64,000 bases of DNA from Candidatus Kapaibacterium sp. (GTDB taxonomy: Bacteria > Bacteroidota > Ignavibacteria > Palsa-1295): contig JBBRNY010000001.1 of assembly GCA_038229915.1 (NCBI GenBank), forward strand, positions 102,891 to 166,890, given 5' to 3'. Shown piece by piece: positions 2 through 61,982 of the stretch (position 1 is its first letter; every line of letters starts with the position of its first letter). Under the pieces are notes generated by a model, which saw only the letters and a list, made by a program, of their open reading frames with translations, was not told the DNA's origin and made no database searches. A program made the translations under genes and the position numbers.

Positions 2-988
2 ATTTATTGGGCTTCTGTAAGTCAGTTGTCTCTCAGTAACTACTTTATGGGCGCTGATATTTCTCGTGGTGGTGGTCGTATCGTTGTCACAGACCCACAG
101 GTACCGATCATTCCGCCGATCTATAGTGATCCGTTCGGAACGAACATCGGTCAGGATCTCAACACTGGTGATATCTCTTGCGTCTATGCAATGGAAAATA
201 TTGCTAACAGTGGTAACTGGGCTATTTGGATGCCGGGTAGTGGCTTTTGGCCTCCGATGTATCCATCAGCTTTCAGCAACTACCTCGCATGGGGTACGTA
301 TATCTGTAATCCTTGCGGTGACGGATTCTTTGCACCATACTATTGGAACAATGCAGGTTCGTACAATCCTATGATTCGTGCAATGGTTAGCCAAACTGGT
401 ATCTTGCCAGTCGAACTTACTTACTTGCATGGCAAGAGCGATAACGGCAAAGCTGTTCTCACATGGGCTACCGCTCAGGAAAAGAACAACCAAGGCTTCT
501 TCGTTGAACGCCGCCGTGTTGACCAAGCCGACGGATTCTTCGAAAAGATTTCGTTCGTCAATGGTAAGGTCAATTCGAATACCGAAACCGGATATTCGTT
601 CGTTGATCGCAACGTAACACCTGGTACATATACCTACCGCTTGACCCAAATGGATCTTGATGGTAGCCAACATGTCACCAATACGGTTAATGTTGAGATC
701 GGTGCTCCGACGAACTTCACGTTGGAACAGAACTATCCGAATCCGTTCAATCCGTCAACTGACATCAGCTTCACATTGCCAGAAGGCGCACCAACCAAAC
801 TCGTGATCTACAACACGCTTGGTCAGGTCGTCCGTACGCTTGTCGATGGCTATGTCAAGACCGGTACAACAACCGTTCATTTTGACGCGAAAGACGATGC
901 TGGTAACGAACTCGCAAGTGGTTCGTACCTCTACAAGATCAATAGCGGATCGTACACTGCGACCCGTAAAATGAACTTGTCGAAATAA
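2..988 (+). CDS. Secreted protein with T9SS (Por) C-terminal sorting domain; 5'-partial, since the frame is open to the window start and the listed start at 26 is TTG
   Basis: C-terminal ~80 aa (NYPNPFNPSTDISFTLPEGAPTKLVIYNTLGQVVRTL...SGSYLYKI) matches the type-A T9SS CTD pattern. No stop codon in frame upstream of 26. Confidence 0.65.
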   Translation: MYWASVSQLSLSNYFMGADISRGGGRIVVTDPQVPIIPPIYSDPFGTNIGQDLNTGDISCVYAMENIANSGNWAIWMPGSGFWPPMYPSAFSNYLAWGTYICNPCGDGFFAPYYWNNAGSYNPMIRAMVSQTGILPVELTYLHGKSDNGKAVLTWATAQEKNNQGFFVERRRVDQADGFFEKISFVNGKVNSNTETGYSFVDRNVTPGTYTYRLTQMDLDGSQHVTNTVNVEIGAPTNFTLEQNYPNPFNPSTDISFTLPEGAPTKLVIYNTLGQVVRTLVDGYVKTGTTTVHFDAKDDAGNELASGSYLYKINSGSYTATRKMNLSK

Positions 989-35647: not shown

Positions 35648-36289
35648 ATGATAGAGATAAAAAAATATTTAGTATTGGTATTGCTGATGGTACTTGGTTG
35701 TCAAACGTCTTCCGAGCCGCCAGCAACGGCTACTTCTTCAGACTATTTACCGTTAGAAATAAATAACCGGTGGATATATTTACGTGAGAGATATTATCGT
35801 GGTACTCTTTTAAATACGGATACGCTGACGGTAACGGTTGTCAGTTTTGATAGTGTGCTCAAAGCATGGAAGGTTGCGCGTGTTTCGCCTACGGCAACTG
35901 ATACATTAAGTATTCAAAAGATAGATGATAGCCATTATCGTTTTGCTCGATCGGGTACAAATGTATTTTTATCATTGATCTCGATCTCACCCACATCAGC
36001 ATCGGCAATGCTCTTGCCGACGAAGGCTGATGGCATCAACTCAAGCCAAGAAACATCGTTAATTTCGGACTCGTCATATAATACCAACACCAGTAAACGT
36101 ATTCATCAACACTTTATGCTTTATGGTGTCGATAGTGTTACGACGTTACAATTAGATTTTGAACATAGCTTTGTGCGCGGAGTCGGACAAGTACATGCAG
36201 CGTTTATTTCGGATATCAATCAGTGCTTAGTCTGCTCGCTCCGTTCGGAATTTTATACATATCGTTTGATAGATCATACCATACAATGA
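35648..36289 (+). CDS. Hypothetical lipoprotein
   Basis: Lipobox LVLGCQ. No family recognised. Confidence 0.4.
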   Translation: MIEIKKYLVLVLLMVLGCQTSSEPPATATSSDYLPLEINNRWIYLRERYYRGTLLNTDTLTVTVVSFDSVLKAWKVARVSPTATDTLSIQKIDDSHYRFARSGTNVFLSLISISPTSASAMLLPTKADGINSSQETSLISDSSYNTNTSKRIHQHFMLYGVDSVTTLQLDFEHSFVRGVGQVHAAFISDINQCLVCSLRSEFYTYRLIDHTIQ

Positions 36290-37149
36290 GCCTAGAAGAA
36301 CTTTCTATTATTGTTTCAGCGCTTGACGAAGATACCGGAAGCGGCGACCCGACGACTGAGGCAACGGTCGATCCAACCATCAACGGCACAGCTTTTTTTC
36401 TTGCAAAAGAAAATGGTATGCTGTCGGGGATAGAGTATGCTTGTGAAGTTTTCAATGTATATGCAAAGCGAAGTGATCGCGAGGCGGCCGTTACGCATCA
36501 AATAATCATTCAAGATGGAACACCTGTTAAAATTGGTGATAGAGTTGCCGTTATATCCGCACCGCTTGATATTATTCTTACAGCGGAGCGTGTCGCACTG
36601 AATATTTTACAACGAATGTGCGGCATTGCCACTATGACCGCACAGTTTGTTGAAGCGATCAGAGGAACAGGAGCAACAATTCTCGATACTCGAAAGACGG
36701 TGCCGTTGCTACGCCCATTTGATCGGTATGCGGTCAAGAGCGGCGGCGGAAGCAATCATCGTTATTCACTCGGTGATATGATTCTTGTCAAAGATAATCA
36801 CATTGCTGCCAACGATATGAATATTATGTTGGTCATCGAAAAGCTCCGAACATATTTCAGTACTCGAACGAAGATCCCTGTTGAGTTGGAAGTGACAAGT
36901 CTTGCTCAGTTTGCTATCGTGCAAGAATTTGGAGTAGGAATAATAAATAGGGTATTGTTCGATAATTTTAAACTTGAAGACTTACGCCAAGGCGTCGTTC
37001 TCAATAATGGAGTGTTTGAAACAGAAGCCTCGGGCGGAGTGAATCTTTCGACAGTTCGCGAGATCGCCGAGACGGGTGTAAACTATATTTCGGTCGGTGC
37101 ATTGACTCACTCGGTCAAAGGTCTTGATATTTCCTTAGAGGTCGAATAA
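36286..37149 (+). CDS. nadC: Nicotinate-nucleotide pyrophosphorylase (quinolinate phosphoribosyltransferase)
   Basis: QPRTase N- and C-terminal TIM-barrel domain pattern (ILDTRKT.P, VKDNHI, EASGG). ATG at 36286 overlaps the upstream stop (ATGA). Confidence 0.8.
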   Translation: MSLEELSIIVSALDEDTGSGDPTTEATVDPTINGTAFFLAKENGMLSGIEYACEVFNVYAKRSDREAAVTHQIIIQDGTPVKIGDRVAVISAPLDIILTAERVALNILQRMCGIATMTAQFVEAIRGTGATILDTRKTVPLLRPFDRYAVKSGGGSNHRYSLGDMILVKDNHIAANDMNIMLVIEKLRTYFSTRTKIPVELEVTSLAQFAIVQEFGVGIINRVLFDNFKLEDLRQGVVLNNGVFETEASGGVNLSTVREIAETGVNYISVGALTHSVKGLDISLEVE

Positions 37150-42606: not shown

Positions 42607-44328
42607 GTGAAAATATTTTTAGTCATCGTTCTTTTTATTACTGTTTGTGCTTCAGTTTCCGATGCACAGCTGAACTCAAGGCCACACGTCGGCATAGCAC
42701 AAGTGCCGATCGGTGAAGAGGTGTATGCCTTTCTCAGACATCTCAGTGTGAGAGGCTTTATTCAAGGATACAGCGAAACACAATTACCCATCTCGGAATT
42801 TGATGTTGTTCGCTTTTTGCGTCAGGCAAATACAATATTACTTTCCGATGGTGAAAAGGCGTTGCGAATAAAATTTCTTCGTACCTACGAGCGTGAGCCA
42901 TACGAAGCGGTAACAATGTTTCCATCTGAAAATGCAGAGCCCCTCTTTTTTAGCGGCATACCCACTGACAAAGATAAATATCTCTATCGTTGGCGCGATG
43001 ATTCTACGCTTTCGGATTTTCAAGTTCATGGAATTGCCAGTTTAGAATATCGTCGCCGAAGCAAACCAACCCCCGGCACTGCAGAGCTTGGGTTGATCGG
43101 CGGAAGATTTACCGGTTCGCTCAGCGGACACGTTGGTTTTTTTATGGAAACAACCAACGGGCAGGATTTCGGTGACTCTACGATCGCCCTTGAAGATCCG
43201 ATCATCGGAAAAAATAAAAATTTTACATTATTCTCGCACAGTTTTTTTGATCAGACCACCGGTGAGTTAGTCTATAACAATGACTGGTTCACAGCGAAGA
43301 TCGCTCGTGAAGCTATTGCGATCGGCGGAAGTTATCAGGGAAATAATGTTATTATCTCGCCAAATATTCAAACGCCCGATTTTATCAGTTTGCAGGCGCA
43401 CGTCGGTGCCGTTCGATATCAGGCCACCGTTGCATCGCTCCTTGGTGACCCAAGATTTAGTGAGCGCCCGACATCGGCAGGAGAGTTTACCGCGGGTCCG
43501 GGTTCATATATTGATTCAAAATATCTTGCCTTCCACGACCTGACATTCTTTATCGGCAACGATGTTGAATTTGGTTTTACTGATATGACGATCTTCTCTC
43601 GACGCTTTGATCTTGCGTATGCCAACCCATTCACATTCTATAAGTCGGTCGAGCATTCGCTCAACGACCGCGATAACGGCTTGCTCGCGGCTCACGCACG
43701 TTGGAGGATCACCAATAATCTTGAGATCAGAGGTCAAGGTTTAGCCGATGACATTCTTGCCAGCAAGATCGGGACCGGATTTTGGGGAAATAAGTTTGCA
43801 TGGCAGATCGGCGGAATGTGGTCTGCACCGTTTGGACTCAATGATGTCGATGTTTCTCTTGAACATACTCGTGTCGAGCCGTTTACATATTCGCATTTTA
43901 ATCCGCAAAATACATTCGCGACCAGTGGGCAGATCATCGGTGCAGGCATCGGACCAAATGCGCTCAGTTGGTGGGGACAGATCCGTTGGGCACCGAACGA
44001 AAAACTAACGCTCGAAGCAACGATGACACTCGTCGAGCGTGGCGAGAATATTTATAACAGTGCCGACTCATTATTAGAAAACTTCGGATCAAACTTTGAA
44101 TACTCTGTCCGTAGTGAGGACGAGAAAAATCATATTATTCACCTTCTCGATGGACGAAGAGTCAATACGATGACAATAGAAGCCACCGTTCGTTATGAAT
44201 TGTGGCGCGGGCTCGGGTTCTATGCAAAACTTTTAAACAAGAGCGTAAACTATCTTGCCGGTACGCCGGAAAATCCGATAGAGAAACCCTATGGACTGAT
44301 TACCATTGGCGCCAAAGCACTCTTTTAG
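42607..44328 (+). CDS. Hypothetical outer-membrane beta-barrel protein in export position (Wzi-like?)
   Basis: Signal peptide, C-terminal ...GAKALF, Gly/aromatic-rich strands. GTG start. Confidence 0.4.
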   Translation: MKIFLVIVLFITVCASVSDAQLNSRPHVGIAQVPIGEEVYAFLRHLSVRGFIQGYSETQLPISEFDVVRFLRQANTILLSDGEKALRIKFLRTYEREPYEAVTMFPSENAEPLFFSGIPTDKDKYLYRWRDDSTLSDFQVHGIASLEYRRRSKPTPGTAELGLIGGRFTGSLSGHVGFFMETTNGQDFGDSTIALEDPIIGKNKNFTLFSHSFFDQTTGELVYNNDWFTAKIAREAIAIGGSYQGNNVIISPNIQTPDFISLQAHVGAVRYQATVASLLGDPRFSERPTSAGEFTAGPGSYIDSKYLAFHDLTFFIGNDVEFGFTDMTIFSRRFDLAYANPFTFYKSVEHSLNDRDNGLLAAHARWRITNNLEIRGQGLADDILASKIGTGFWGNKFAWQIGGMWSAPFGLNDVDVSLEHTRVEPFTYSHFNPQNTFATSGQIIGAGIGPNALSWWGQIRWAPNEKLTLEATMTLVERGENIYNSADSLLENFGSNFEYSVRSEDEKNHIIHLLDGRRVNTMTIEATVRYELWRGLGFYAKLLNKSVNYLAGTPENPIEKPYGLITIGAKALF

Positions 44329-44351
44329 ACAGCACGTTTTATTTTACTATT

Positions 44352-45551
44352 ATGACTGATCAATCTTCACCGAATAGTGTGCATCATCTTGAGCCAGCTC
44401 GCAAAGCATGGGTTGAAGCGATGGCACTGTTGCTTCGCCACAAGACGCTAATTTTGCTGACTTCGATCGCTGTAACGATCGTCACGGTAGTGTATATGTT
44501 TTTTGTTGCGAAAATTTGGTTTAAAGCAGAGGCGAATATTGTACCGGCAAGAAGGCAGGGTGGAATGTTTGACAATATTACTGCTGGTATTTCGAGCACG
44601 ATCAAAGATCTCGGTCTGACTCAGCTTGCAGGAAAAAATAAGAGTGATGGTGTCTATAGTCCGCTTGCTATTGTCGGCAGCAGAACAGTTGGCGAGAAAA
44701 TGGTGAAAGATTACGGTTTGATGAAAGTCTATGAAACCGAAAATATCGATGATGCCATAAAAGAATTTGGCGAGCATACTTCTGTTGCAGTTCTTGAAGA
44801 AGGGAACATTGGAGTATCATTTGAAGATACCGACCCCAAGCGTGCTGCCGAGGTTGCAAACCGATTAGTGGGGATGCTTAATGAAGTAAATTCAAAACTC
44901 GCGAACGACGAAGCAAAGTTCAACCGAACATATATTGAAGAACGATACAGCAATATGATCGCTGATCTTGATTCGTCAGAAAAAGCACTCGGTGTGTATC
45001 AGCGTAAGTATGGTGTCTATGAACTCAAGGCGCAAGCCGCCGCACAACTTTCGGTCTTGAGCACGCTCGAGCAACAGCGCTATCTCTCGGAGATACAACT
45101 TGCCAGCGCAGAACAACTCTACGGCACTCAGTCCCCCGAAGCAAACACCATGCGGACACAGATGGCTGAGCTTGGGAAAAAACTTGAAGATCTGCGTACC
45201 GGAATGGATCAAAATGCAAAAAGTTATTTTCCGGCTATGAATGTAATGCCCGACGTGGCATTAGATTATCTTCGCTTGACGCGCGAAGTCGAAATACAAT
45301 CAAAATTGAAAGCGTTTATGCTTCCGTCGTACGAGCAAGCGAAAATGGATGAAAACAAACAGTCTTTATCGTTCATTATGCTCGATTCGGCGCAGGTGCC
45401 TTTTAGAAAATCAAGACCAAAACGCTCGGTTGCGATCTTGATCGCTTTTTTTGGAAGTATAGTACTTACTTCGCTCACAGTGATCGTCGCGACTCGTGTT
45501 GGCGAAGCCCGCGAACGCTTCCGTCGTGATCGCAAATTGTTGGGAGTCTAA
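44352..45551 (+). CDS. Polysaccharide chain-length determinant protein (Wzz/PCP family, no kinase domain)
   Basis: N-terminal TM (LILLTSIAVTIVTVVYMFFVA), long coiled-coil periplasmic region, C-terminal TM (VAILIAFFGSIVLTSLTVIVA). Confidence 0.6.
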   Translation: MTDQSSPNSVHHLEPARKAWVEAMALLLRHKTLILLTSIAVTIVTVVYMFFVAKIWFKAEANIVPARRQGGMFDNITAGISSTIKDLGLTQLAGKNKSDGVYSPLAIVGSRTVGEKMVKDYGLMKVYETENIDDAIKEFGEHTSVAVLEEGNIGVSFEDTDPKRAAEVANRLVGMLNEVNSKLANDEAKFNRTYIEERYSNMIADLDSSEKALGVYQRKYGVYELKAQAAAQLSVLSTLEQQRYLSEIQLASAEQLYGTQSPEANTMRTQMAELGKKLEDLRTGMDQNAKSYFPAMNVMPDVALDYLRLTREVEIQSKLKAFMLPSYEQAKMDENKQSLSFIMLDSAQVPFRKSRPKRSVAILIAFFGSIVLTSLTVIVATRVGEARERFRRDRKLLGV

Positions 45552-45561
45552 AACCATAGTA

Positions 45562-46890
45562 ATGAACCTACTCTCGAGATTGATCTTTCGTTCTTCGAGA
45601 TCGCAGTTTCTGTGGTGGGGTTTTATTGTTGCACTTGTTATTCGTATCGCGATCGTTATTTCATTTGGGAATGCAGAGCATCCACAAATGTATGAACATG
45701 GCGATATAGCAAATAACTTGTATCAGGGCAATGGCTATACCATGCACTGGCCTTATGAATCGCTCGATAGTGCGCGTCGCGCTGTGATGAGCAAGCCTCC
45801 CAACCATGAAGGGGCGTTTATTCCGCCACTCAACCCCTATCTTATTTACGTGTCGTATCTATTGTTTGGTCAGACATCACTGGCCATTACTGCTCTGATG
45901 TTGTTCTATGCAATATGTAGCGCGTTAGTAATACCTATTGTGTATCAATCATCGAGATTGTTATCATCGGAGACTGGTGCGCGTTGGTGTGCGATGATTG
46001 CGTCACTTTTTGTTCCTGCGGCGTATTCGGTGACAACATTTTCAGGTTCACCACTATATCATTTGTTCGGAGCGTTAATAGTATTATTCGCGATTCGAGT
46101 AATACAATTCTGTCAATTCAGTGACGTTATTTGGCTTGGCGTATGTTGCGGAATAATGACATTACTTCGAAGTGAGTTTTTCCTTCTCAGCTTTCTTCTG
46201 ATTGCGCTTGTCGTTCTCTATTCTCGTCAGAAATATTCATTTTCACAAAAATTTAAATCGCTTGCTATTTCGGCAGGGGTGTGTCTGTTAGTTATTACTC
46301 CCTGGACGGTTCGCAATTATAAATTGTTTAACCGTTTTGTGCCGGTGCTTAGCCATCCGTGGTTTGAAATTTGGCGCGGGAATAATGCTGTGGTTGCCTC
46401 TGGCTCATTATTTTCAGCCGAGCCTTATGTCTGGGTTAGCCCTGTGCAATTTCCGGAGATCATAAAAAAAATGGATGCTCTTCCGTATGATCGTTTTTTT
46501 GAGGTCGGCGTGAATGATATGTTTCAGGCATCTGCTTTAGAGTTTATGAAAGCCAATCCGGGGCAAGTACTATATCTAAGCACAAAAAAAATATTCTATC
46601 TTCTAACAATAGATATGGCTGACCATTCAGTCCGAAACCCGATCTATATACTTTCGATGCTCGTCGTCATACCCCTGACGCTATTCGGACTTTACAAAAT
46701 ACTTACATCAAAAGAAAGACAAGTAGAAGGAATGCTATTTCTTTTGATATTTGGATATTATCTCGCGATCACCGCCGCAACCTATTCGTTGCCGAGGTAT
46801 CAGATTTATCTTTTTGTGCTACTGCTACCATTAGTAGGGGTGTCGCTTTCATCTAAAATTGAAGAGCAAGCTCTTAAATCTCGTGTATAA
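45562..46890 (+). CDS. GT-C fold membrane glycosyltransferase (ArnT/PMT-like, GT39/GT83 family)
   Basis: More than 10 TM helices. TM1 is followed by a periplasmic loop rich in E/D/aromatic residues (GNAEHPQMYEHGDIANNLYQGNGY). Confidence 0.55.
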   Translation: MNLLSRLIFRSSRSQFLWWGFIVALVIRIAIVISFGNAEHPQMYEHGDIANNLYQGNGYTMHWPYESLDSARRAVMSKPPNHEGAFIPPLNPYLIYVSYLLFGQTSLAITALMLFYAICSALVIPIVYQSSRLLSSETGARWCAMIASLFVPAAYSVTTFSGSPLYHLFGALIVLFAIRVIQFCQFSDVIWLGVCCGIMTLLRSEFFLLSFLLIALVVLYSRQKYSFSQKFKSLAISAGVCLLVITPWTVRNYKLFNRFVPVLSHPWFEIWRGNNAVVASGSLFSAEPYVWVSPVQFPEIIKKMDALPYDRFFEVGVNDMFQASALEFMKANPGQVLYLSTKKIFYLLTIDMADHSVRNPIYILSMLVVIPLTLFGLYKILTSKERQVEGMLFLLIFGYYLAITAATYSLPRYQIYLFVLLLPLVGVSLSSKIEEQALKSRV

Positions 46891-48508
46891 AGTACGTCCG
46901 ATCATAAAGTATTGTTTTTTTGCAATAACAACGTTGTTGTTATTGACGATGCTTGCTTTTCCGATGGGCAACGACCAAGCAATTTTTGAAGTTTGTGGGG
47001 CGCTGATTGCCAGAAAGTCTGCCATCCCCTTTCGTGATTTTCTTGAGATGAAGCAACCGTTGATATTTTATATATATTCTTGGTCAACAATATTGTTTGG
47101 CAGACATGAGTATTCAATACGAATACTGGATGTAGTATATCATATTATTTCATTGGGGTTGTTTTATAAAATAATTTCTAAAATTTATAACAATGAATTC
47201 ATAGGCTTGTTAACGATATTTATCTACACTATCTATTTTCTTAGTGGAGGGTATTGGAGCACCGCCCAAACGGAGTCATTTGCTTTGCTTCCTCAACTTG
47301 GGATACTCTATGCAGTTGTCGGATCATTCAAAGCCACGGATAAGCGTAAAGTAATAGGGTATGCGCTACTCGCCGGAGTTTGTACTATTTTAATAATATC
47401 TATTAAAGTAACTCTGGGTTTGATTGCATTGCCGGTAATTTTTTCTACAGTATTGTTTTTTCGTAAGCTAGCGCTTCGAAGTTCAACGTTTTTGGTCCCG
47501 TATATTTTGTCATCCATCTTTTTTTTATCCATAGAGGTATATTGGCTTTGGGCCTCGAATGCACTCCAAAATTTAATTTTGACATTCCAGTGGTTGGCAA
47601 ATTACGCTTCAACCTTTTCTCCGCTATTTAGCACAATAACGTTTAAGGATATATATTATAAGCTTGTCCCAGAACAATTTTTGGTAACTTTTACTCTTTC
47701 ACTGATCGCTCTTGCTTGCTATGCAGTGTGTACTGAAAAACTTCGGTTCATTACCACTAAAATTACGACTCGAGAATTCTTCCGAATTTTTTGTTTACTA
47801 TGTGTTGGATTTGGACTGGTCGGCATACTGATTGAGCGAAAAGCTTTTACCTATCATTATACTCGAATTACCTGGTGCATTGTACCCTTTGTTGCCGAAG
47901 GAATATTTACACTTTGGAATAAACGCAGCACATTCAGTGAGTGGTTTAGCCAATGGCATGGATTACAACGATTTGTGTTGAGTGTGTTTTTCGGTTTAGC
48001 AGTTGTTGTATTTTTCTTATGGTCGCCCTTGCCGAGAATAATAGATCAATCCTTTGGGTGGTCATTTATTGCAATCAACGGCGATGCAAATGCTCGTGCA
48101 AAGAAGATCGAATCAAGCAAGTACGATCTTGTAGATGCGATCTCCCTTGCCCAACATTACGCTCCTTCGCTCACCCCTACAGATCATATATTTCTTTGGG
48201 GAAACACCGTACAATTATATTATGAGTTTGATCAGTTACCAACGACACTCTGTGTTGCGAATCCACAATTGATCTCGCCTTGGACGCCAAAGGTTTGGAT
48301 CGACACGTTGGTTTCGCAATTGAAGAACGCTCCACCAACTTATTTTTTGTGTGAGCTGAAGGATGAGAGACCATTAATTACTGGAACACCAGATGAATCC
48401 TATGCAGCATTGTTGAAGATTTCACCATTGAGAGAGTTCCTCTTCTCACACTATGCGTTGGTTGATAGTAATGCGCATTTCAAAATGTTTAAGTACATCC
48501 GCTCGTGA
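46859..48508 (+). CDS. Second GT-C fold membrane glycosyltransferase (ArnT/PMT-like)
   Basis: Polytopic, with N-terminal TM1 then a PMGNDQAIFEV loop. The start is uncertain (TTG at 46859, GTG at 46883 or ATG at 46949). Overlaps the upstream gene. Confidence 0.5.
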   Translation: MKSKLLNLVYKVRPIIKYCFFAITTLLLLTMLAFPMGNDQAIFEVCGALIARKSAIPFRDFLEMKQPLIFYIYSWSTILFGRHEYSIRILDVVYHIISLGLFYKIISKIYNNEFIGLLTIFIYTIYFLSGGYWSTAQTESFALLPQLGILYAVVGSFKATDKRKVIGYALLAGVCTILIISIKVTLGLIALPVIFSTVLFFRKLALRSSTFLVPYILSSIFFLSIEVYWLWASNALQNLILTFQWLANYASTFSPLFSTITFKDIYYKLVPEQFLVTFTLSLIALACYAVCTEKLRFITTKITTREFFRIFCLLCVGFGLVGILIERKAFTYHYTRITWCIVPFVAEGIFTLWNKRSTFSEWFSQWHGLQRFVLSVFFGLAVVVFFLWSPLPRIIDQSFGWSFIAINGDANARAKKIESSKYDLVDAISLAQHYAPSLTPTDHIFLWGNTVQLYYEFDQLPTTLCVANPQLISPWTPKVWIDTLVSQLKNAPPTYFLCELKDERPLITGTPDESYAALLKISPLREFLFSHYALVDSNAHFKMFKYIRS

Positions 48509-54868: not shown

Positions 54869-56302
54869 ATGAGCAGAAGAAAAGAACTCATCAGTCTGTT
54901 GCTTGGCGATCTACTCGCCATCACCGGCTCGTGGTTCTTATTCTATTGGCTGCGTTTTTTTTCCGGGTTATTTATCGTGCGTCCTGGGTTGGAATTTGAT
55001 GTTCCGCACGTACTTCAAAGTTCGATCTTTATTTATTTTTTCTGGTTTGTTGCATTTTTATTTTTTGGTCTTTATCGGTCGTGGTACGTTCGCCCGATCT
55101 TTGATGAGATCGTCACGGTTTTAAAAACAGAAGCATTCGGAACAGTCGTGTTTATGATCGTGGTACTTTGGGATCCACTAACACCGAACGAAATCTCCAC
55201 ACCGACTCGCAATGATCCGAGGTTATTAGGTTTGTTATACTTCGGGTGTATTACCGTTTTAACAGTTTCTGTTCGGTTGCTTGTTCGATATACCCAACGG
55301 AGATTGCTTGAAGCAGGTATTGGTCTCCGTCCAGCAATTATTGTCGGCGAGGGTATAAAAGCCCAGCAACTGGCGCACAATCTTTCTCGGGCAAAACGTC
55401 TCGGCTATGAGGTCTTGGGCTACGTGAGCGCGAACGGAATTGATGATACGCAACCTGTTCAGGAATTACAGCGGCTTGGTACATTTGCAACGCTTGAGCA
55501 AGTGATCAGCGAAAAAAACATTAAGGAAGTATTGATCGCATTAGATTCGGGAGAGCATCATCGTCTTCTCGATCTTCTCGGTAGGCTTTCGGCACAGAAT
55601 GTCGGGATGAAGATCGTCCCCGATCTCTATGATATTATCTCGGGGCAAGCACGCACGAGAGAGATCTATGGCTTTCCGCTGATCGATATTAATCCCGAGA
55701 TCATGCGCCCTTGGGAGGAAGTGACCAAGCGTATCATGGATATTGTGATCAGTGCTGTTATTATTGTTGTTGGGTTTCCTGTTTGGGTTCTTGTTGCACT
55801 TGCGGTCGGGCTTACCTCAAAGGGTCCGATCTTTTATACGCAAGAACGTGTCGGAAAAAATGGCGAGGTATTTGCGATCTATAAATTTCGTTCGATGACC
55901 ATTGATGCCGAAAAAGATGGGCTACCTCAATGGGCACAAAAAAATGACCCCCGGGTGACAACACTCGGAAAATTTTTGCGTAAGACACATCTTGACGAGG
56001 TACCACAGTTTTGGAATGTACTCAGTGGGGATATGTCATTAGTGGGTCCAAGACCGGAACGTGAGTATTTTGTACTTCAACTGACAAAAGAATTACCATA
56101 TTATCGTCGCCGCCTCAAAGTTCGTCCCGGTATCACGGGGCTCTATCAGGCAATGGTGCATAAGTATGACGAAAATATGGACGATGTGCGAAACAAATTA
56201 AAGCATGATCTGCTCTATATCGAGTCGATGTCGTTTCGGCTCGATATAAAAATTCTATTTCGTACGGCATATATGATGATCAAAGGGAAAGGACAAGCAT
56301 AA
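54869..56302 (+). CDS. Undecaprenyl-phosphate sugar phosphotransferase (WbaP/EpsE-type polyprenyl glycosylphosphotransferase)
   Basis: Four or five N-terminal TM helices, a CoA-binding-like linker, and the C-terminal catalytic domain (KGPIFYTQERVGKNGEVFAIYKFRSM...DEVPQFWNVLSGDMSLVGPRP). Confidence 0.85.
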   Translation: MSRRKELISLLLGDLLAITGSWFLFYWLRFFSGLFIVRPGLEFDVPHVLQSSIFIYFFWFVAFLFFGLYRSWYVRPIFDEIVTVLKTEAFGTVVFMIVVLWDPLTPNEISTPTRNDPRLLGLLYFGCITVLTVSVRLLVRYTQRRLLEAGIGLRPAIIVGEGIKAQQLAHNLSRAKRLGYEVLGYVSANGIDDTQPVQELQRLGTFATLEQVISEKNIKEVLIALDSGEHHRLLDLLGRLSAQNVGMKIVPDLYDIISGQARTREIYGFPLIDINPEIMRPWEEVTKRIMDIVISAVIIVVGFPVWVLVALAVGLTSKGPIFYTQERVGKNGEVFAIYKFRSMTIDAEKDGLPQWAQKNDPRVTTLGKFLRKTHLDEVPQFWNVLSGDMSLVGPRPEREYFVLQLTKELPYYRRRLKVRPGITGLYQAMVHKYDENMDDVRNKLKHDLLYIESMSFRLDIKILFRTAYMMIKGKGQA

Positions 56303-56305
56303 GGG

Positions 56306-57457
56306 ATGAGCACTATAATAGATCAACAAATAGTAAGACCCGTACACATGGTTGATGTGATCGGTCAATATAAACGCTATCAAAGTGAAATTGATGAAGC
56401 GATGATGTGTGTCGTCAAGAGCGGTGCGTATATTAACGGACCCGCTGTTAAACAATTTGAGAGAAATATGGAATCGTATCTTGGTGTGAAGCATGCTATT
56501 GCTTGCGCCTCGGGTACCGATGCATTACAAGTTGCGCTGATGGCGATCGGTATTAAACCGGGTGATGAGATCATTACATCTCCGTTTACTTTTGTTGCAA
56601 CAACCGAGACGATCGCATTGCTTGGCGGAATTCCGGTCTATGTTGATATTGATTCCGAGACATTTAATATCGATGTTGAGCGCATAGCCGAACGGATCAC
56701 ACCTCGTACCAAAGCGATATTACCGATCCATATTTTCGGGCAGCCAGCAAATATGACTCGAATTATTGAGATCGCAAAAGCACACAACATTTATGTGATC
56801 GAAGATGCTGCACAAGCGGTTGGTGCAAAATGGGATAACCAAAATGCTTGTACGTTTGGAGACATTAGCTGCATCTCGTTCTATCCTTCAAAAAATCTTG
56901 GTGCTTTTGGCGACGCTGGGATGATCACCAGTGACAATGACGAACTCGCCGCAATTATTCGTTCGATCTGTAATCATGGCGCATCGGTCACCTACCATCA
57001 CGATAGGCTTGGAGTGAATTCGCGTTTAGATTCGATACAGGCGACGATCCTTGACGTGAAATTAAAATATCTTGATGAGTGGAATGCTCGCCGCCGCGAA
57101 GTGGCTGATCTCTATTCATCGCTGTTCGCTCCGTATGCTGATCTGATCACGACTCCGGTTACTGACCCGAGCGCAACGCATATTTGGCATCAATATTCAA
57201 TTCTCCTTGGGACCAATCGTGACGCGGTGATGGCGGCACTCAAAGTAAAAGGTATTCCAACGAGTATTTATTATCCGATCCCGCTTCATTTACAGCCGGC
57301 ATATTCATCATACGGTTCGAAGCAAGGGGATTATCCTCATTCTGAAAACACTTCTGCACATATCCTCGCACTGCCGATGCACTCGGAGCTCAGTGATGAC
57401 GATGTGCATTATATTGCAGATCATATCATTCAAACGGTCAACGAACTATGTCGCTAA
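56306..57457 (+). CDS. DegT/DnrJ/EryC1/StrS-family PLP-dependent sugar aminotransferase
   Basis: Typical blocks (AIACASGTDALQVALMA, ITSPFTFVATTE, SFYPSKNLGAFGDAG). Confidence 0.85.
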   Translation: MSTIIDQQIVRPVHMVDVIGQYKRYQSEIDEAMMCVVKSGAYINGPAVKQFERNMESYLGVKHAIACASGTDALQVALMAIGIKPGDEIITSPFTFVATTETIALLGGIPVYVDIDSETFNIDVERIAERITPRTKAILPIHIFGQPANMTRIIEIAKAHNIYVIEDAAQAVGAKWDNQNACTFGDISCISFYPSKNLGAFGDAGMITSDNDELAAIIRSICNHGASVTYHHDRLGVNSRLDSIQATILDVKLKYLDEWNARRREVADLYSSLFAPYADLITTPVTDPSATHIWHQYSILLGTNRDAVMAALKVKGIPTSIYYPIPLHLQPAYSSYGSKQGDYPHSENTSAHILALPMHSELSDDDVHYIADHIIQTVNELCR

Positions 57458-58197
57458 CACGAGCTCTGATCATCATTCCAACCTACAACGAGATCGACAA
57501 CGTCGAGAATATCGTTCGTGCAGTGTTGGAACAAGAAAAAAATACACCTGATGTACAACTCTCTGTCCTGATCGTCGATGATAATTCGCCCGACGGGACT
57601 GCTGCTGTTGTAAAAAAACTCCAGGAAGATCCGGCACTCGGACCGGAGCGAGTACACTTACTTTCACGCCCCGGAAAGATGGGACTTGGGACAGCGTATG
57701 TTGAAGGTTTTCGATATGGCTTGTCTCATACGTTCGATTATATTTTTGAAATGGATGCCGACTTCTCACACGACCCCGAGGAGATCCCAAATTTTTTACG
57801 CGAAATAAAATCGTATGATGTCGTACTCGGCTCGAGATACATTACCGGTGCCAATGTCGCTAATTGGCCGCTGAGAAGATTACTACTTTCGTATTATGCC
57901 AATAAATATGCACGTATTGTTACAGGACTGAAAGTCTATGATACGACGGGCGGCTTCAAGTGCTTTCGTCGTGAAGTGCTCGAGTCTATTGATCTTAATG
58001 GTATTCATTCGAACGGATATGCCTTTCAGATCGAAATGAATTTTAGGGCTTGGCGCAAAAAATTTCGCATTAAAGAAATTCCGATCGTTTTTGTTGATCG
58101 CCGCGCCGGTACCAGCAAGATGAACAAGTCTATCGTTCGTGAAGCAGTATTGTTGGTCTGGAAGCTAAAACTGAAAACGATCTCCGGTGAATTATAA
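57448..58197 (+). CDS. Polyprenol-monophosphate sugar synthase (DPM1/ArnC-like GT2, soluble form)
   Basis: IIIPTYNE.DN, VDDNSPDGT and GSRY motifs of the dolichyl/polyprenyl-phosphate mannose/glucose synthase family; 249 aa without TM. Confidence 0.75.
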   Translation: MSLTRALIIIPTYNEIDNVENIVRAVLEQEKNTPDVQLSVLIVDDNSPDGTAAVVKKLQEDPALGPERVHLLSRPGKMGLGTAYVEGFRYGLSHTFDYIFEMDADFSHDPEEIPNFLREIKSYDVVLGSRYITGANVANWPLRRLLLSYYANKYARIVTGLKVYDTTGGFKCFRREVLESIDLNGIHSNGYAFQIEMNFRAWRKKFRIKEIPIVFVDRRAGTSKMNKSIVREAVLLVWKLKLKTISGEL

Positions 58198-58231: not shown

Positions 58232-60256
58232 GTGGATATTTCGATCATCATTGTCAATTACAACGTGCGCGAGTTTCTTCGCGGCGCGCTCGAAAGCGTG
58301 CGCCGTTCGCTCGCGGGTGGTGGTTTGACGGGTGAGGTATTCGTTGTTGACAATGCTTCTCGTGATGGCAGTGTCGATATGGTCAGAACTTCCTTTCCGG
58401 AAGTCAAGTGCGTTGCGCTCGAACAAAATCTTGGCTTTGGCAAAGCAAATAATATTGCGATGCGCGAAGCAACCGGCGATTATTTGCTCATCCTCAACCC
58501 TGATACTATTCTCGGTGAAGATACACTTCGCGTGATGGTCGATTTTATGCGAAAGAATCCGAATGCGGGGCTTTCGGGATGCAAGCTCTTGAATGCTGAT
58601 GGTTCATTTCAGGTTTCTTGTCGTCGTGGTTTTCCTACACCGTGGGCAAGTTTTACCAAGCTCTTCGGATTGTCGTCGTTCTTCCCGAATTCGCCACGAT
58701 TCGCACAATATAACCTGACCTATTTGCCTGTTGACGAGACGTATGAGATCGACGCATTAGCTGGTGCATTTATGATGATGTCTCGTAAAGCCTATGAGAC
58801 TGTGGGTGGTTTCGACGAAGAATTTTTTATGTATGGTGAAGATCTCGATCTTTCTTTCCGAGTAAAAAAATCTGGGTTCGGAGTATTTTATGTCCACTCC
58901 ACTTCGACGGTACATTTTAAGGGAGAATCCACTCGTCGAAGTGCGATCAACGAGATAAAAGTTTTTTACGAAGCGATGCATATCTTTGTGCATAAGCATT
59001 ACGGATCAAACCCGTTCTTTACCATCCTCCTTCGCTTGGGCATCAGTCTTCGCTCGCTCGTCGCTTTGCTGAAAAAACATCGTGGCGCATTGGTGCTTGC
59101 ATTTGGTGATCTGATACTGACAATGCTTACGGTTCTGGGTGTAAGCAAATATTTGCTTGGAGATTGGTTTGGGCTTCCGTCGATAGATTATCCTTGGGCA
59201 TTATTAGTGCCGGCATTTCTTGTGCTGTTGGTATTGATGCTTGTCGGCTCCTATTCTCAGGGCGAACGTCGCAAAGCCAAGCCCGTATTAGTCGCGATGC
59301 CTGCGGCTCTCATTATGCTTTCGTCGATCACGTTTTTCTTTAAGGAAATACCTTCGAGTCGAACACTTCTATTATTGATGACCGGCTCTTGGTCGGTGGC
59401 GATGATATTCTATCGGTATCTGCTTCGTGGTGCTGACCGTATTCGTTATGGCGGCGAGGGTACGGCACAACCGATGCTTCGCAATACACTGATCGCAGGG
59501 ATCGGGGCGGAGTCAGAACGTATCGCAACACTATTGCTCTCATCAGGTTTTATCCGTCGTTATCGTTTGGTTGGTTTTGTTGATTCTGATCTCTCGCGTC
59601 TTGGTCAAGAAGTGGTGGCTGGCATTCCCGTCAAAGGCGACCTTGCGATGCTTGCAAGAATAATCCGTGAAGAAAAAATATCACAGGTGATCTTTCCGGC
59701 AGATGCTTTTTCGTATTCGGATATGTTGTTAGCAATGCAAGCTGTTTCGGGCGATGAATTGACAGCTGAAGTAAGTTTTAATGTCGTACCACAAGCGAGT
59801 GATGTGTTGCTTTCACGATCGAAGATCGAACTGATCCGTCCGGCAGAAAGCCCGGAGTCGCTGGCACTAATGCCGCTTGAATATAACATTCAACGAATGA
59901 GCCATCGTGTGGCAAAACGGATCCTCGATATTTTCGGTAGTGTGGTCGCATTTCCATTGGTATGGCTCGGATCGATACTATTCCGTAAAGCTGATTTGCG
60001 AGAATTATTAGGAAAATTAGGGTCAGTTTTTATGGGGAAGCAATCTTTAGTAGGTATCAGATCGACAGGTGCTGACGACCGAAAATATGCCAAAATCGGG
60101 CTTGTAAGCCTCTCTGACGTGACTTCCGGACCTGTTTCAGGCTTGCTCAGAAGCGAGGATATCGACCAAATGAATCTCTATTATGCCCGACACCACTCAA
60201 TTTCTATGGACATCGAGATCTTATTAAGAAAATTGTTTACGAACAAAACGGTCTAA
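58232..60256 (+). CDS. Fusion protein: N-terminal GT2 glycosyltransferase, central polytopic membrane region, C-terminal degenerate WbaP-like sugar-transferase domain
   Basis: GT2 core (ISIIIVNYN, VVDNASRDGS, YGEDLDL). Four to six TM helices. The C-terminus aligns to both ends of the PGT domain (RILDIFGSVVAFPL... / ...GKQSLVGIRS...DIEILLRKL) but lacks the ~60-aa catalytic core present in the bona fide WbaP at 54869. GTG start. Confidence 0.55.
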   Translation: MDISIIIVNYNVREFLRGALESVRRSLAGGGLTGEVFVVDNASRDGSVDMVRTSFPEVKCVALEQNLGFGKANNIAMREATGDYLLILNPDTILGEDTLRVMVDFMRKNPNAGLSGCKLLNADGSFQVSCRRGFPTPWASFTKLFGLSSFFPNSPRFAQYNLTYLPVDETYEIDALAGAFMMMSRKAYETVGGFDEEFFMYGEDLDLSFRVKKSGFGVFYVHSTSTVHFKGESTRRSAINEIKVFYEAMHIFVHKHYGSNPFFTILLRLGISLRSLVALLKKHRGALVLAFGDLILTMLTVLGVSKYLLGDWFGLPSIDYPWALLVPAFLVLLVLMLVGSYSQGERRKAKPVLVAMPAALIMLSSITFFFKEIPSSRTLLLLMTGSWSVAMIFYRYLLRGADRIRYGGEGTAQPMLRNTLIAGIGAESERIATLLLSSGFIRRYRLVGFVDSDLSRLGQEVVAGIPVKGDLAMLARIIREEKISQVIFPADAFSYSDMLLAMQAVSGDELTAEVSFNVVPQASDVLLSRSKIELIRPAESPESLALMPLEYNIQRMSHRVAKRILDIFGSVVAFPLVWLGSILFRKADLRELLGKLGSVFMGKQSLVGIRSTGADDRKYAKIGLVSLSDVTSGPVSGLLRSEDIDQMNLYYARHHSISMDIEILLRKLFTNKTV

Positions 60257-60297
60257 GGTGTGTTGTGTTTGTGTTCACTTTCACTACAAAAACGACT

Positions 60298-60996
60298 ATG
60301 CAACTACGGTCATTCATTCTATTGGTAATGTTGGCATTATGCCCGACATTGGTACTTGCACAACGGACGATCACCGTGATGGGTGATGGCCATGCAGAAG
60401 CAAAGCCTGACTATGCCACCGTCACAATGATGCTTTCGGCACAAGACTTCACTGCGCAGGGAGTATTTGATAAAGCCGGTGAAAACACGACTCGTTTATT
60501 GAAGTCGTTCGCCGATGCGGGAATTGCGGCAGCAGATGTTCAGCAGCAGGGAGTCGCACTCAACCCAAGCTATGATTATTCCGGTGGCGGCGGAGCCCCA
60601 CCTCGATTAGCAGGCTATCACTTGATGAGTACCTATGTTATTAAAGTAAGGAATCTGAAACAACTTCCGAAAGTCATCGATCTTGGTACCCTTGCCGGAG
60701 CATCGAATGTTGCTCTATCGGGTTATGGTGCTGCTAATAACGATGAGTTAGAAGAAAGTGCGACAAAAAAAGCACTTGCCGAAGCTCGCGAAAAGGCAGA
60801 AAGACTTGCCGAACAAATGGGCGGCAAACTTGGCGAAATACTTTCGATCACCGATGCTGAAGCCGCTGGTGGTATGGGGGCGATGGGCGGTGGTGAACGT
60901 GAGGAAGAAGAGCACCGTGGAATGATCGTTGCAGGATCGAACTCGCAAAAGATCAGCAAATCGGTTGAATTGAAAGTGACATTCTTAGTAAAGTAA
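60298..60996 (+). CDS. SIMPL/DUF541 (YggE-like) periplasmic protein
   Basis: Signal peptide; general SIMPL pattern with C-terminal ...[10 protein letters not shown]; Gly/Glu-rich insertion. Confidence 0.6.
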
Positions 60997-61013: not shown

Positions 61014-61982
61014 ATGGCGACTACTACGCTGGAATTTGAAAAGCCGATCACCGATCTCGAAGCAAAGATCGAAGAGATGCGCTCGCTTGGCGAGTCGGTT
61101 GATCTTTCCGAAGAAATTGTAATGATGGAGCAAAAAGTCGAAGGGCTTCGTCAGGAGATATTCGATAATCTTACAAGGTGGCAGCGTGTACAGCTTGCGC
61201 GACACCCCGAACGCCCATATACATTAGATTATGTAAACGCCTTAACGCCTGATTTTATGGAGCTGCATGGTGATCGTGGCGTTCGCGATGATCCGGCTAT
61301 CGTTGGCGGGTTTGGTACGATCGAAGGTATTGGGAGTGTGTTATTTGTAGGGCATCAAAAAGGACGAGACACCAAACAAAATGTGTATCGTAATTTCGGA
61401 ATGCCAAATCCTGAAGGCTACCGAAAAGCATTACGTCTGTTTAAATTAGCCGAAAAATTTCGTCGCCCGGTCATTTGTCTTCTCGATACACCCGGCGCAT
61501 TCCCTGGGCTTGAAGCCGAAGAGCGCGGACAAGCCGAAGCGATCGCGAGAAATCTTTTCGAGATGTCGAAGCTTGAAGTGCCGATCATCATCGTTGTTAT
61601 CGGCGAAGGCGCATCAGGTGGCGCACTTGGTATTGGAGTTGGTGATCGAGTACTGATGCTCGAAAACTCTTGGTATTCGGTTATCTCACCCGAGTCTTGT
61701 TCGTCGATCTTGTGGCGTAGCTGGGGCTTTAAGGAGCAAGCGGCTGAAGCATTGAAGCTGACAGCACCTGATCTGCTTTCGATCGGTGTGATCGATCGTA
61801 TCGTGCCCGAGCCTTTGGGTGGCGCGCACCGCGACCCCGACAAGATGTTTGCGACACTTCGTGATGTGCTTGTCGATGAGATCAACAGCCTCAGAACCAA
61901 CGAGCAGTTCGAGCACGGGAAGGCATTAGAACGCCGCGTCAAAAAATTCTCGAAGATGGGATATTGGAAAGACGAAAATTAA
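61014..61982 (+). CDS. accA: Acetyl-CoA carboxylase carboxyltransferase subunit alpha
   Basis: LDFEKPI..LE N-terminus and the carboxyltransferase [21 protein letters not shown]...[15 protein letters not shown] signature. Confidence 0.9.

Follow-up and report, generated by a model that had tools for sequence, protein, structure and literature searches.

The fusion gene and its domains

The window analysed here is a stretch of 64,000 nucleotides from Candidatus Kapaibacterium sp. (contig JBBRNY010000001.1). Positions 58232-60256 of its + strand hold an open reading frame (ORF) with a GTG start that encodes 674 amino acids. The product joins a complete glycosyltransferase of the GT2 family to a membrane region derived from a phosphoglycosyl transferase (PGT), and the catalytic core of the PGT is missing. 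An earlier reading of the sequence alone (the original prediction) had proposed this arrangement, and it is borne out by Pfam, by profile comparison with hhalign and by a motif scan of 410 relatives. We refer to the fusion gene and the fusion protein. It is one intact gene, and the sequence MDISIIIVNYN at the N-terminus is also the N-terminal consensus among the homologues. The protein is divided as follows (Lg-PGT, large PGT; DUF, domain of unknown function):

58232..58951, + strand: GT2 (GT-A) catalytic domain, residues 1-240 (Pfam, invariant motifs, Foldseek matches to GT-A structures)
58952..59080, + strand: amphipathic or interfacial helices linking GT2 to the bundle, residues 241-283 (AlphaFold2 helices 241-256 and 261-282; hydrophobic window 261-281)
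59081..59449, + strand: four-transmembrane-helix bundle of Lg-PGT type, residues 284-406 (hhalign to residues 1-150 of the intact Lg-PGT; TIGR03025 from residue 293)
59474..59788, + strand: Rossmann-like DUF (CoA_binding_3), residues 415-519 (PF13727, Foldseek, hhalign)
59789..59896, + strand: inter-domain β-hairpin, residues 520-555 (aligns to the Lg-PGT segment KIVPDLYDIISGQARTREIYG)
59897..59989, + strand: re-entrant membrane helix of the PGT fold, residues 556-586 (K562-R563, D566 and P575 kept)
59989..59990, + strand: deletion junction K586/A587 (gap in hhalign; 60 residues of the PGT core gone)
59990..60256, + strand: remnant of the PGT globular domain, residues 587-674 and the stop codon (column frequencies; partial PF02397 match at 584-668)

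The GT2 profile PF00535 matches residues 4-159 (E 2.8e-23, 83.1 bits vs a gathering score of 23.3), and PF13641 covers residues 3-234. CoA_binding_3 (PF13727) is found at residues 346-488 with 39.4 bits, which passes its gathering score of 25. The Bac_transf profile PF02397 matches residues 584-668 only (profile positions 83-174 of 179), and its 22.3 bits fall below the gathering score of 27. The NCBIfam profile TIGR03025 (exopolysaccharide polyprenyl glycosylphosphotransferase) aligns residues 293-578 with positions 3-274 of its 445 (E 4e-21). The scores are well under the NCBIfam cut-offs for TIGR03025 (75.8 vs 295.55 bits), TIGR03023 (60.5 vs 410.75 bits) and TIGR03022 (30.3 vs 403 bits), and no equivalog-level NCBIfam match was obtained for the fusion protein. 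When the full protein sequence was searched against the PDB only GT2 structures were returned, so that profile and fold comparison were required to reveal the kinship with PGTs.

The C-terminal region is homologous to large PGTs

An intact Lg-PGT of the WbaP type, which the original prediction had noted in the same locus, is encoded at 54869-56302 in the same operon; we call it the window WbaP. The profile of 181 members of the fusion family was compared with that of 23 intact Lg-PGTs drawn from related loci plus the window WbaP. The probability given by hhalign is 100% (E 2e-56), with residues 280-674 of the fusion protein collinear with residues 1-473 of WbaP. The alignment has two gaps, one of 60 residues (window WbaP 312-371, LAVGLTSKGPIFYTQERVGKNGEVFAIYKFRSM...DPRVTTLGKFLR) and one of 13 residues after the PRP motif. 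The C-terminal 122 residues by themselves match the PGT domain with a probability of 99.3% (E 7.7e-21). The similarity of the C-terminus is therefore statistically significant in a profile alignment, and the prediction that both ends of the PGT domain align to WbaP around a missing core of about 60 residues is confirmed.

The AlphaFold2 model of residues 280-674 has a mean confidence (pLDDT) of 86.9. When it was searched against the PDB with Foldseek the top match was S. enterica WbaP (8t53_A; E 2.3e-10, 447 aligned columns). The matches that follow have E values of 8e-5 and weaker and cover the DUF only (Rex repressors, and 3nkl, the N-terminal domain of a WbpM/PglF-type enzyme). AlphaFold2 places the four helices of the bundle at 284-309, 322-338, 350-369 and 377-406. 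A four-transmembrane-helix (4TMH) bundle followed by a CoA_binding_3-like DUF is the architecture of the Lg-PGTs, and here it is seen by PF13727, by hhalign, in the AlphaFold2 model and in the match to 8t53_A.

The linker at residues 241-283 stands upstream of the region that hhalign aligns with Lg-PGTs, and its helices probably lie in the plane of the membrane. The original prediction had placed a separate segment of four to six transmembrane helices ahead of some 150 residues of PGT ends. The membrane helices are present, but they comprise the amphipathic helix and the Lg-PGT four-helix bundle and do not form a segment apart. That layout also missed the DUF and the hairpin lying between the bundle and the PGT remnant, which are found with PF13727, hhalign and Foldseek.

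WbaP is a tight dimer, held together chiefly by the DUF and a domain-swapped hairpin; in the AlphaFold2 model of the WbaP monomer the hairpin is misplaced, the confidence there being no more than moderate (PMC10942596). In the fusion protein the segment 520-555 is aligned to the Lg-PGT hairpin, with P520 invariant and both I532 and N552 nearly so. Its pLDDT is below 50 at residues 522-549 in both monomer models, and two short strands are modelled there. By analogy with WbaP it may have a role in dimerization.

The order of the elements is thus that of the Lg-PGTs (WbaP, WcaJ, CpsE; 8T53): 4TMH bundle, CoA_binding_3-like DUF, hairpin, re-entrant helix and C-terminal helices. The fusion protein differs from these in having an N-terminal GT2 of 280 residues with its linker, in falling below the PGT cut-offs of NCBIfam and Pfam, and in lacking the 60-residue core, the Asp-Glu dyad, the PRP motif and the arginine that binds undecaprenyl phosphate. 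By these alignments, the C-terminal 395 residues are one degenerate large PGT, consisting of 4TMH bundle, DUF, hairpin and PGT remnant.

Catalytic elements are lost and structural elements are kept

Residues of the PGT part are compared here with those of PglC, a small monotopic PGT (monoPGT; 8G1N and 5W7L), whose numbering was reached through alignments of WbaP and PglC. The 60-residue gap corresponds to positions 55802-55981 of the window in the gene for the window WbaP, and the missing segment holds GPIFY...KFRSM...DPRVT..GKFLR. The gap is common to all aligned members of the fusion family. A scan for KFRSM, DExPQ and GPRP found none of these motifs in 410 full-length relatives, while all three are present in 19 of 23 neighbouring intact Lg-PGTs.

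The Asp-Glu dyad (PglC Asp93-Glu94) has no conserved counterpart; column 591 is E in 18% and S in 10%, and column 592 is L in 23% and F in 20%, the remainder being other residues. The core β-hairpin carrying KF(K/R)(S/T)M and the mobile loop (PglC residues ~40-85) fall into the gap. The columns of the PRP motif (Pro111-Arg112-Pro113) are not conserved. PglC binds undecaprenyl phosphate through Arg88 and Arg145 (PMC10519829). The position of Arg88 lies in a deleted or unconserved stretch of the fusion family, and those of Arg145 and of Lys179, another of the basic residues involved, are not conserved. The original prediction suggested that the remnant could keep its binding of undecaprenyl phosphate; these alignments do not support such retention.

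By contrast, the elements of PglC that can still be recognised are the Lys-Arg pair and helix-breaking Pro of the re-entrant helix, the Lys7-Asp169 pair, the SFxG and GxTG strands and YY(A)KN. The remnant keeps SLVG, G-L-x-S/G, YYA+N.S and D660-x-E662-I-L, together with a helix (E591/L592, unconserved) in place of the Asp-Glu helix. [quoted passage not shown] The conservation in the fusion family is as follows:

K562: 99% conserved, PglC K7
R563: 96% conserved, PglC R8
D566: 98% conserved, PglC D11
Pro at column 575 or 579: ~92% combined, PglC P24
G602: 96% conserved, PglC G104
V607-G608: 98% conserved, PglC I109-G110
G623: 93% conserved, PglC G135
Y651: 99% conserved, PglC Y160
D660: 100% conserved, PglC D169

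Since the residues of the fold are kept while those of catalysis and of undecaprenyl phosphate binding vary, the alignment indicates selection on folding and orientation, and not on catalysis or on binding of the lipid phosphate. Having failed on the catalytic features that define the PGTs, the fusion protein should not be filed as a PGT on its sequence, despite its homology with the Lg-PGTs.

We note two local differences from PglC. In a Kapabacteria subgroup the proline stands at K+13, compared with K+17 in PglC and the other members, so the first arm of the re-entrant helix is shorter by four residues, or one turn. Residue 662 (window 60215-60217) is Glu in 82% of members (D-x-E-I-L), whereas real PGTs have Lys (PglC LD-V-K171, window WbaP LD-I-K); this is a conserved reversal of charge.

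The extent of the loss varies somewhat. The deletion of 60 residues is clean in Ignavibacteriota, Kapabacteria and Bacteroidota. A remnant of the hairpin, lacking the motifs, is kept in WOR-3/TA06, Marinimicrobia, Balneolaceae, one Cytophagia metagenome-assembled genome (MAG) and one Calditrichales genome. One member from WOR-3/TA06 passes PF02397 with 49.5 bits, at profile positions 92-174 only. It could be asked whether the protein still works as a bifunctional PGT-GT by means of non-canonical catalytic residues, given that WOR-3/TA06, Marinimicrobia and some Calditrichota retain part of the hairpin and exceed the PF02397 gathering score, and that the conserved acidic residues D566, D660 and E662 remain. 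We consider this very improbable. D566 and D660 are also conserved in real PGTs, where the equivalent of D660 (PglC Asp169) is structural, and we assume the same of D566. The dyad, the KFRSM hairpin, the mobile loop, PRP and the Arg88 position have all gone, and no new conserved acidic pair has appeared.

The GT2 domain appears active

The invariant motifs of the GT2 domain are DNxSxDxS (D40), NPDT (D91), FMYGEDxD (D204 and D206) and HxxGxS..RS (H228). D40, N89-P90-D91, D204, D206 and H228 are invariant in 93 sequences, with E203 nearly so (at least 90%). In the alignment of 181 sequences 75 of the 240 columns are at least 90% conserved, and identity to the most distant members of the fusion family is still 49%. 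The Foldseek matches include the GT-A structures of WrtF, GalNAc-T2, TarS/TarP and RmlT. Together with PF00535 and the conserved motifs these place the domain in the GT2 (GT-A) family. YGEDLDL had been read as the DxD motif. From general knowledge of the GT2 family we take it instead to be the ED/catalytic-base region, and NPD at residues 89-91 to be the DxD equivalent. The GT2 of the fusion protein would therefore seem to be active, to judge from its conserved site.

WbbL and GlfT1 are non-processive GT-A/GT2 enzymes that act on lipid- or polymer-linked acceptors. With WrtF (9OMM), TarS/TarP and RmlT, which are likewise non-processive and give the best structural matches to residues 1-260, the fusion GT2 shares the GT-A fold, the nucleotide-binding Asp, a DxD-like NPD, the ED region and a C-terminal His, but none of these has a membrane module derived from a PGT.

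Distribution of the family

An initial database search gave more than 100 full-length homologues of 650-695 amino acids with identities down to 39%, from MAGs of Kapabacteria, Ignavibacteriota and Bacteroidota; the closest named relative, at 74% identity, is from Kapabacteria. One genome per GTDB species was then scanned. This yielded at least 600 stretches, of which at least 592 were confirmed as relatives, so that the architecture is present in hundreds of species. Among the scan matches listed are Kryptonia, Melioribacter roseus, Stygiobacter, Calditrichota, Marinimicrobia and TA06, as well as Balneolaceae, Chlorobiota, Hymenobacter, Prolixibacter bellariivorans, Saprospiraceae and many Bacteroidales. 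Further searches brought in a large WOR-3/TA06 clade in which every member has 681 amino acids. The family thus ranges over Ignavibacteriota, Kapabacteria, Bacteroidota, Calditrichota, Marinimicrobia and WOR-3/TA06.

In a very large Bacteroidales branch Pfam finds the GT2 only. These proteins are annotated simply as 'glycosyltransferase' because the two thirds derived from a PGT are no longer detected. A homologue search seeded with a Bacteroidales member found close relatives only, with no named model organism among them.

Two Calditrichota MAGs (L047:9986-11671 and L074:3700-5388) encode proteins of 561-562 amino acids that stop after the DUF and hairpin, and accA begins 2 nt later.

A chimeric query, consisting of a TA06 GT2 and the catalytic domain of the window WbaP, found no fusion of GT2 with an intact PGT in its top 120 matches, which were either 681-residue degenerate forms or plain Lg-PGTs. 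Such fusions, which would be ancestors of the family, may stand lower down the match list. Residues 280-674 were also used as query in an exhaustive phmmer search, which returned 321 matches. Those of 385-460 amino acids suggested a stand-alone scaffold. However, they start within the GT2 or the linker helix (e.g. 'MYGEDLDWCYR', 'LCYRIKK', 'MLRLGIFLRS') and look like gene calls cut at the N-terminus, though this is unproven for three whose first Met lies in the linker; this architecture was not accepted.

In an uncultured Ignavibacteria MAG (L026:9971-11988) the member is split into ORFs of 418 and 267 amino acids, probably by a frameshift or sequencing error.

We find it scarcely credible that the fusion gene is itself an artefact or pseudogene (through a frameshift, an assembly deletion or a gene-calling fusion), or else a processive GT2 synthase with a transmembrane channel. 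The split copy in the Ignavibacteria MAG might be quoted for the former, but the same continuous architecture of ~645-700 residues recurs in hundreds of genomes from several phyla. This recurrence, with the same gap in the relatives, excludes a frameshift, an assembly deletion or two separate genes. For the latter, one might point to the long Foldseek alignments with hyaluronan and chitin synthases; the TM-scores to the hyaluronan synthase and to Chs1 are only 0.27. A processive synthase of the cellulose, chitin or hyaluronan type was rejected since QxxRW is absent (HFKGESTRRS follows the ED region) and the transmembrane helices are homologous to the Lg-PGT bundle.

Genomic neighbourhood

The fusion gene ends a long polysaccharide locus of Wzx/Wzy type in the window. 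This begins with a UDP-sugar dehydrogenase and a 2-epimerase, Wza, two PMT_2 (GT-C) genes, Wzy and Wzx, GT2, GT4 and GT2. It continues with Lg-PGT, DegT aminotransferase, a Dpm1/AglJ-like GT2 lacking transmembrane helices and the fusion gene, after which come SIMPL, accA, ybgC and priA. The genes nearest to the fusion gene are:

54869..56302, + strand: intact large PGT (WbaP/WcaJ type), same operon (PF02397 224.5 bits over its full length; PF13727; TIGR03025 426 bits, above cut-off)
56306..57457, + strand: DegT/PseC-type sugar aminotransferase (TIGR03588-like, 255 bits, below cut-off; same position filled in 6 related loci, cluster c8)
57448..58197, + strand: Dpm1/AglJ-like polyprenyl-phosphate glycosyltransferase, GT2, 249 amino acids, no transmembrane helices, directly upstream of the fusion gene (PF00535 109.7 bits)
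60265-60996, + strand: SIMPL/DUF541 protein with a signal-peptide-like N-terminus, between the fusion gene and accA (Pfam)
61014..61982, + strand: accA, downstream neighbour (NF004344 484.8 bits)

The best NCBIfam matches of the Dpm1-like protein are AglJ, dolichyl-phosphate hexose transferase, PpgS and ArnC, all of them below the cut-offs.

The neighbourhood was compared in 80 loci; counts out of 34 or 32 refer to loci outside the Bacteroidota-type group. Outside this group there is a conserved block of Lg-PGT, (DegT), Dpm1-like gene, fusion gene, accA and ybgC, found in Ignavibacteriota, Kryptonia, Calditrichota and Marinimicrobia. In 26 of 32 loci accA directly follows the fusion gene, and for this reason the SIMPL gene of the window looks like a lineage-specific insertion. 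The Bacteroidota-type loci do not have the block; recR is often upstream (11/37), with other housekeeping genes around.

Directly upstream of the family member on a Calditrichales chromosome (OZ254086.1; L052:7522-9978, + strand) lies an ORF of 818 amino acids with Glycos_transf_4 (PF00953, a polytopic PGT of WecA/MraY type, 143 bits), CoA_binding_3 and, over its full length, Bac_transf (119 bits). The two PGT superfamilies, which are unrelated, seem here to be united in a single polypeptide.

Probable function of the fusion protein

We think that the fusion protein is probably an active GT2 carried on a catalytically dead Lg-PGT that serves as a membrane anchor and dimerization scaffold. The dead module would have lost the synthesis of an undecaprenyl-diphosphate (Und-PP) sugar. 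It would hold the GT2 at the cytoplasmic face of the membrane, and by virtue of the hairpin and DUF that it keeps would also act as a scaffold for dimerization and possibly for sensing nucleotides. From this position the GT2 would transfer an early sugar onto an acceptor, linked to polyprenyl diphosphate (Und-PP), that had been begun by a separate, genuine PGT. Here, and in most loci outside the Bacteroidota-type group, this would be the Lg-PGT encoded two to three genes upstream, making 54869-56302 a candidate for supplier of the Und-PP-sugar acceptor or for dimer partner. A scaffold-type role had been put forward in the original prediction, and it stands as the best reading. Taken together, the conservation of the GT2 across phyla and the housekeeping neighbours point to a conserved, and not strain-variable, glycoconjugate. 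Bacteroidota, Ignavibacteriota and their relatives may share such a glycoconjugate, as yet uncharacterised.

Several observations weigh on the other side. The scaffold evolves much faster than the enzyme, its identity at the far end of the family being 18-24% compared with 49% for the GT2. In the two Calditrichota MAGs with the short proteins the PGT remnant is lost altogether, and so may be partly vestigial. The Bacteroidota-type members have no PGT nearby, from which it follows that not every member is coupled to a neighbouring PGT. What is proposed for acceptor, donor sugar and oligomeric state is inferred, the placing of the GT2 relative to the PGT remnant cannot be read from the monomer models, and we found no experimental study of any family member in the literature.

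A more specific form of the anchor and scaffold reading is that of a heteromeric initiation complex, in which the dead module pairs with the live upstream Lg-PGT by a swap of hairpin and DUF, and the Und-PP-sugar is passed directly to the fused GT2. We regard this as a tentative possibility. An intact PGT is encoded no more than four genes upstream in 22 of the 34 loci, in several phyla, and the gene upstream of the Calditrichales member also encodes a PGT (the WecA-LgPGT fusion). The hairpin is kept and aligns to that of the Lg-PGTs, and these are exactly the elements that mediate the WbaP dimer. Yet half of the family, that of Bacteroidota type, lacks a PGT gene next to it, and the data do not discriminate between a homodimer and a heterodimer. 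If it is correct, the dead large PGT has long been kept (in the FCB superphylum and WOR-3/TA06) as a dedicated adaptor, and there is a two-enzyme initiation machine, PGT and first GT2, for a conserved glycoconjugate that spans phyla. This would be the first pseudoenzyme of the PGT superfamily and the first heteromeric Lg-PGT, and it would give the 'puzzling' 4TMH and DUF accessory module a function in the recruitment of partners.

DPM3 anchors DPM1, and Ppm2 helps Ppm1. By analogy the scaffold might recruit or activate the Dpm1-like enzyme encoded directly upstream, although we think this unlikely. The Dpm1-like gene has that position in 29 of the 34 loci, often overlapping or a few bases apart. 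Its product has no transmembrane helices, and the two GT-C (PMT_2) genes whose products are the would-be users of what it makes lie in the same locus of the window. There is no such adjacency in the Bacteroidota-type loci, and the invariant active site of the fused GT2 is left unexplained. The proposal is compatible with the dead module being an anchor and scaffold, and both could hold together.

The DUF of WbaP binds UMP, UDP and UTP, and WbaP is inhibited by UMP (PMC10942596). The fusion protein could accordingly be a regulatory pseudoenzyme, in which UMP, UDP or a UDP-sugar is sensed by the DUF, alone or together with the PGT remnant, and the GT2 is adjusted allosterically, anchoring being secondary. 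The DUF passes the Pfam gathering threshold, and it is kept even where the PGT remnant has been lost. Against that only 6 of its 105 columns are at least 90% conserved, and we consider a primarily regulatory role quite unlikely.

Whichever applies, the accessory module and the elements of topology have been kept across phyla while the chemistry of the PGT was discarded and a new conserved enzyme attached. This indicates that the module has a function of its own, whether in anchoring, in pairing or in the sensing of nucleotides. The fusion family is a natural experiment on what the accessory four-helix bundle and DUF do in the Lg-PGTs, and it provides a direct handle for testing the function of the module.

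Relationship to known fusions

O'Toole et al. (2021, PNAS) reportedly described GT-PGT fusions in their sequence similarity network of the PGTs. Our literature search, the coverage of which did not extend to that 2021 network paper, found no pseudoenzyme PGT and no such combination of Pfam domains. Proteins in which an additional catalytic domain, such as a glycosyltransferase, is fused to a monoPGT are a recognised class, the bifunctional PGTs (BiPGT), exemplified by Neisseria PglB (PMC11626204, PMC10186338). The suggestion that the architecture had not been described is therefore only partly right. GT-PGT fusions are already known as BiPGT (PMC11626204), and the architecture is very common in databases; what our literature search did not find described is that the PGT portion is dead.

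Like a BiPGT, the fusion protein has a second catalytic domain of a glycoconjugate pathway joined to a domain derived from a monoPGT. It differs in that the PGT core of BiPGTs is taken to be functional and its own is dead, and in that its PGT part is of the large (4TMH and DUF) type. It is thus a fusion, but its core is not functional, and it does not belong to the class. The members that pass PF02397, in the WOR-3/TA06 clade, may have been counted as bifunctional PGTs in the 2021 network although they are unable to be PGTs, and this is a likely trap in annotation. The family is a widespread and uncharacterised derivative of GT-PGT fusions in which the PGT is dead.

The NDP-sugar dehydratases of PglF, Cap5D and WbpM type also use the 4TMH and DUF module of the Lg-PGTs as the carrier of a catalytic domain other than a PGT, a reuse that was called puzzling in the paper on the WbaP structure (PMC10942596). 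The DUF of the fusion protein matches 3nkl, the N-terminal domain of WbpM type. The two arrangements differ in polarity: the dehydratase is C-terminal and replaces the PGT domain, whereas the enzyme of the fusion protein is N-terminal with the PGT remnant still attached. By this analogy the PglF-like dehydratases would be the closest functional counterpart of the fusion protein.

Other features of the polysaccharide locus

Three further observations concern the locus as a whole.

45496-46890 and 46859-48508, + strand: tandem overlapping PMT_2 genes (GT-C, ArnT/PMT-like)
42607-44328 and 44202-45551, + strand: ORFs of 573 and 449 amino acids between the Wza-like exporter and the PMT_2 genes, with no Pfam match at E 1e-5
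36223-37149: nadC, upstream of the whole polysaccharide locus

The substrate of the two PMT_2 enzymes would be a sugar linked to polyprenyl phosphate, for instance the one made by the Dpm1-like enzyme (gene at 57448-58197). In other loci of Ignavibacteriota type nadC and a Wzx-like flippase gene lie downstream of accA-ybgC. The different position of nadC in the window suggests that a variable polysaccharide locus has been inserted into, or rearranged around, a conserved backbone.

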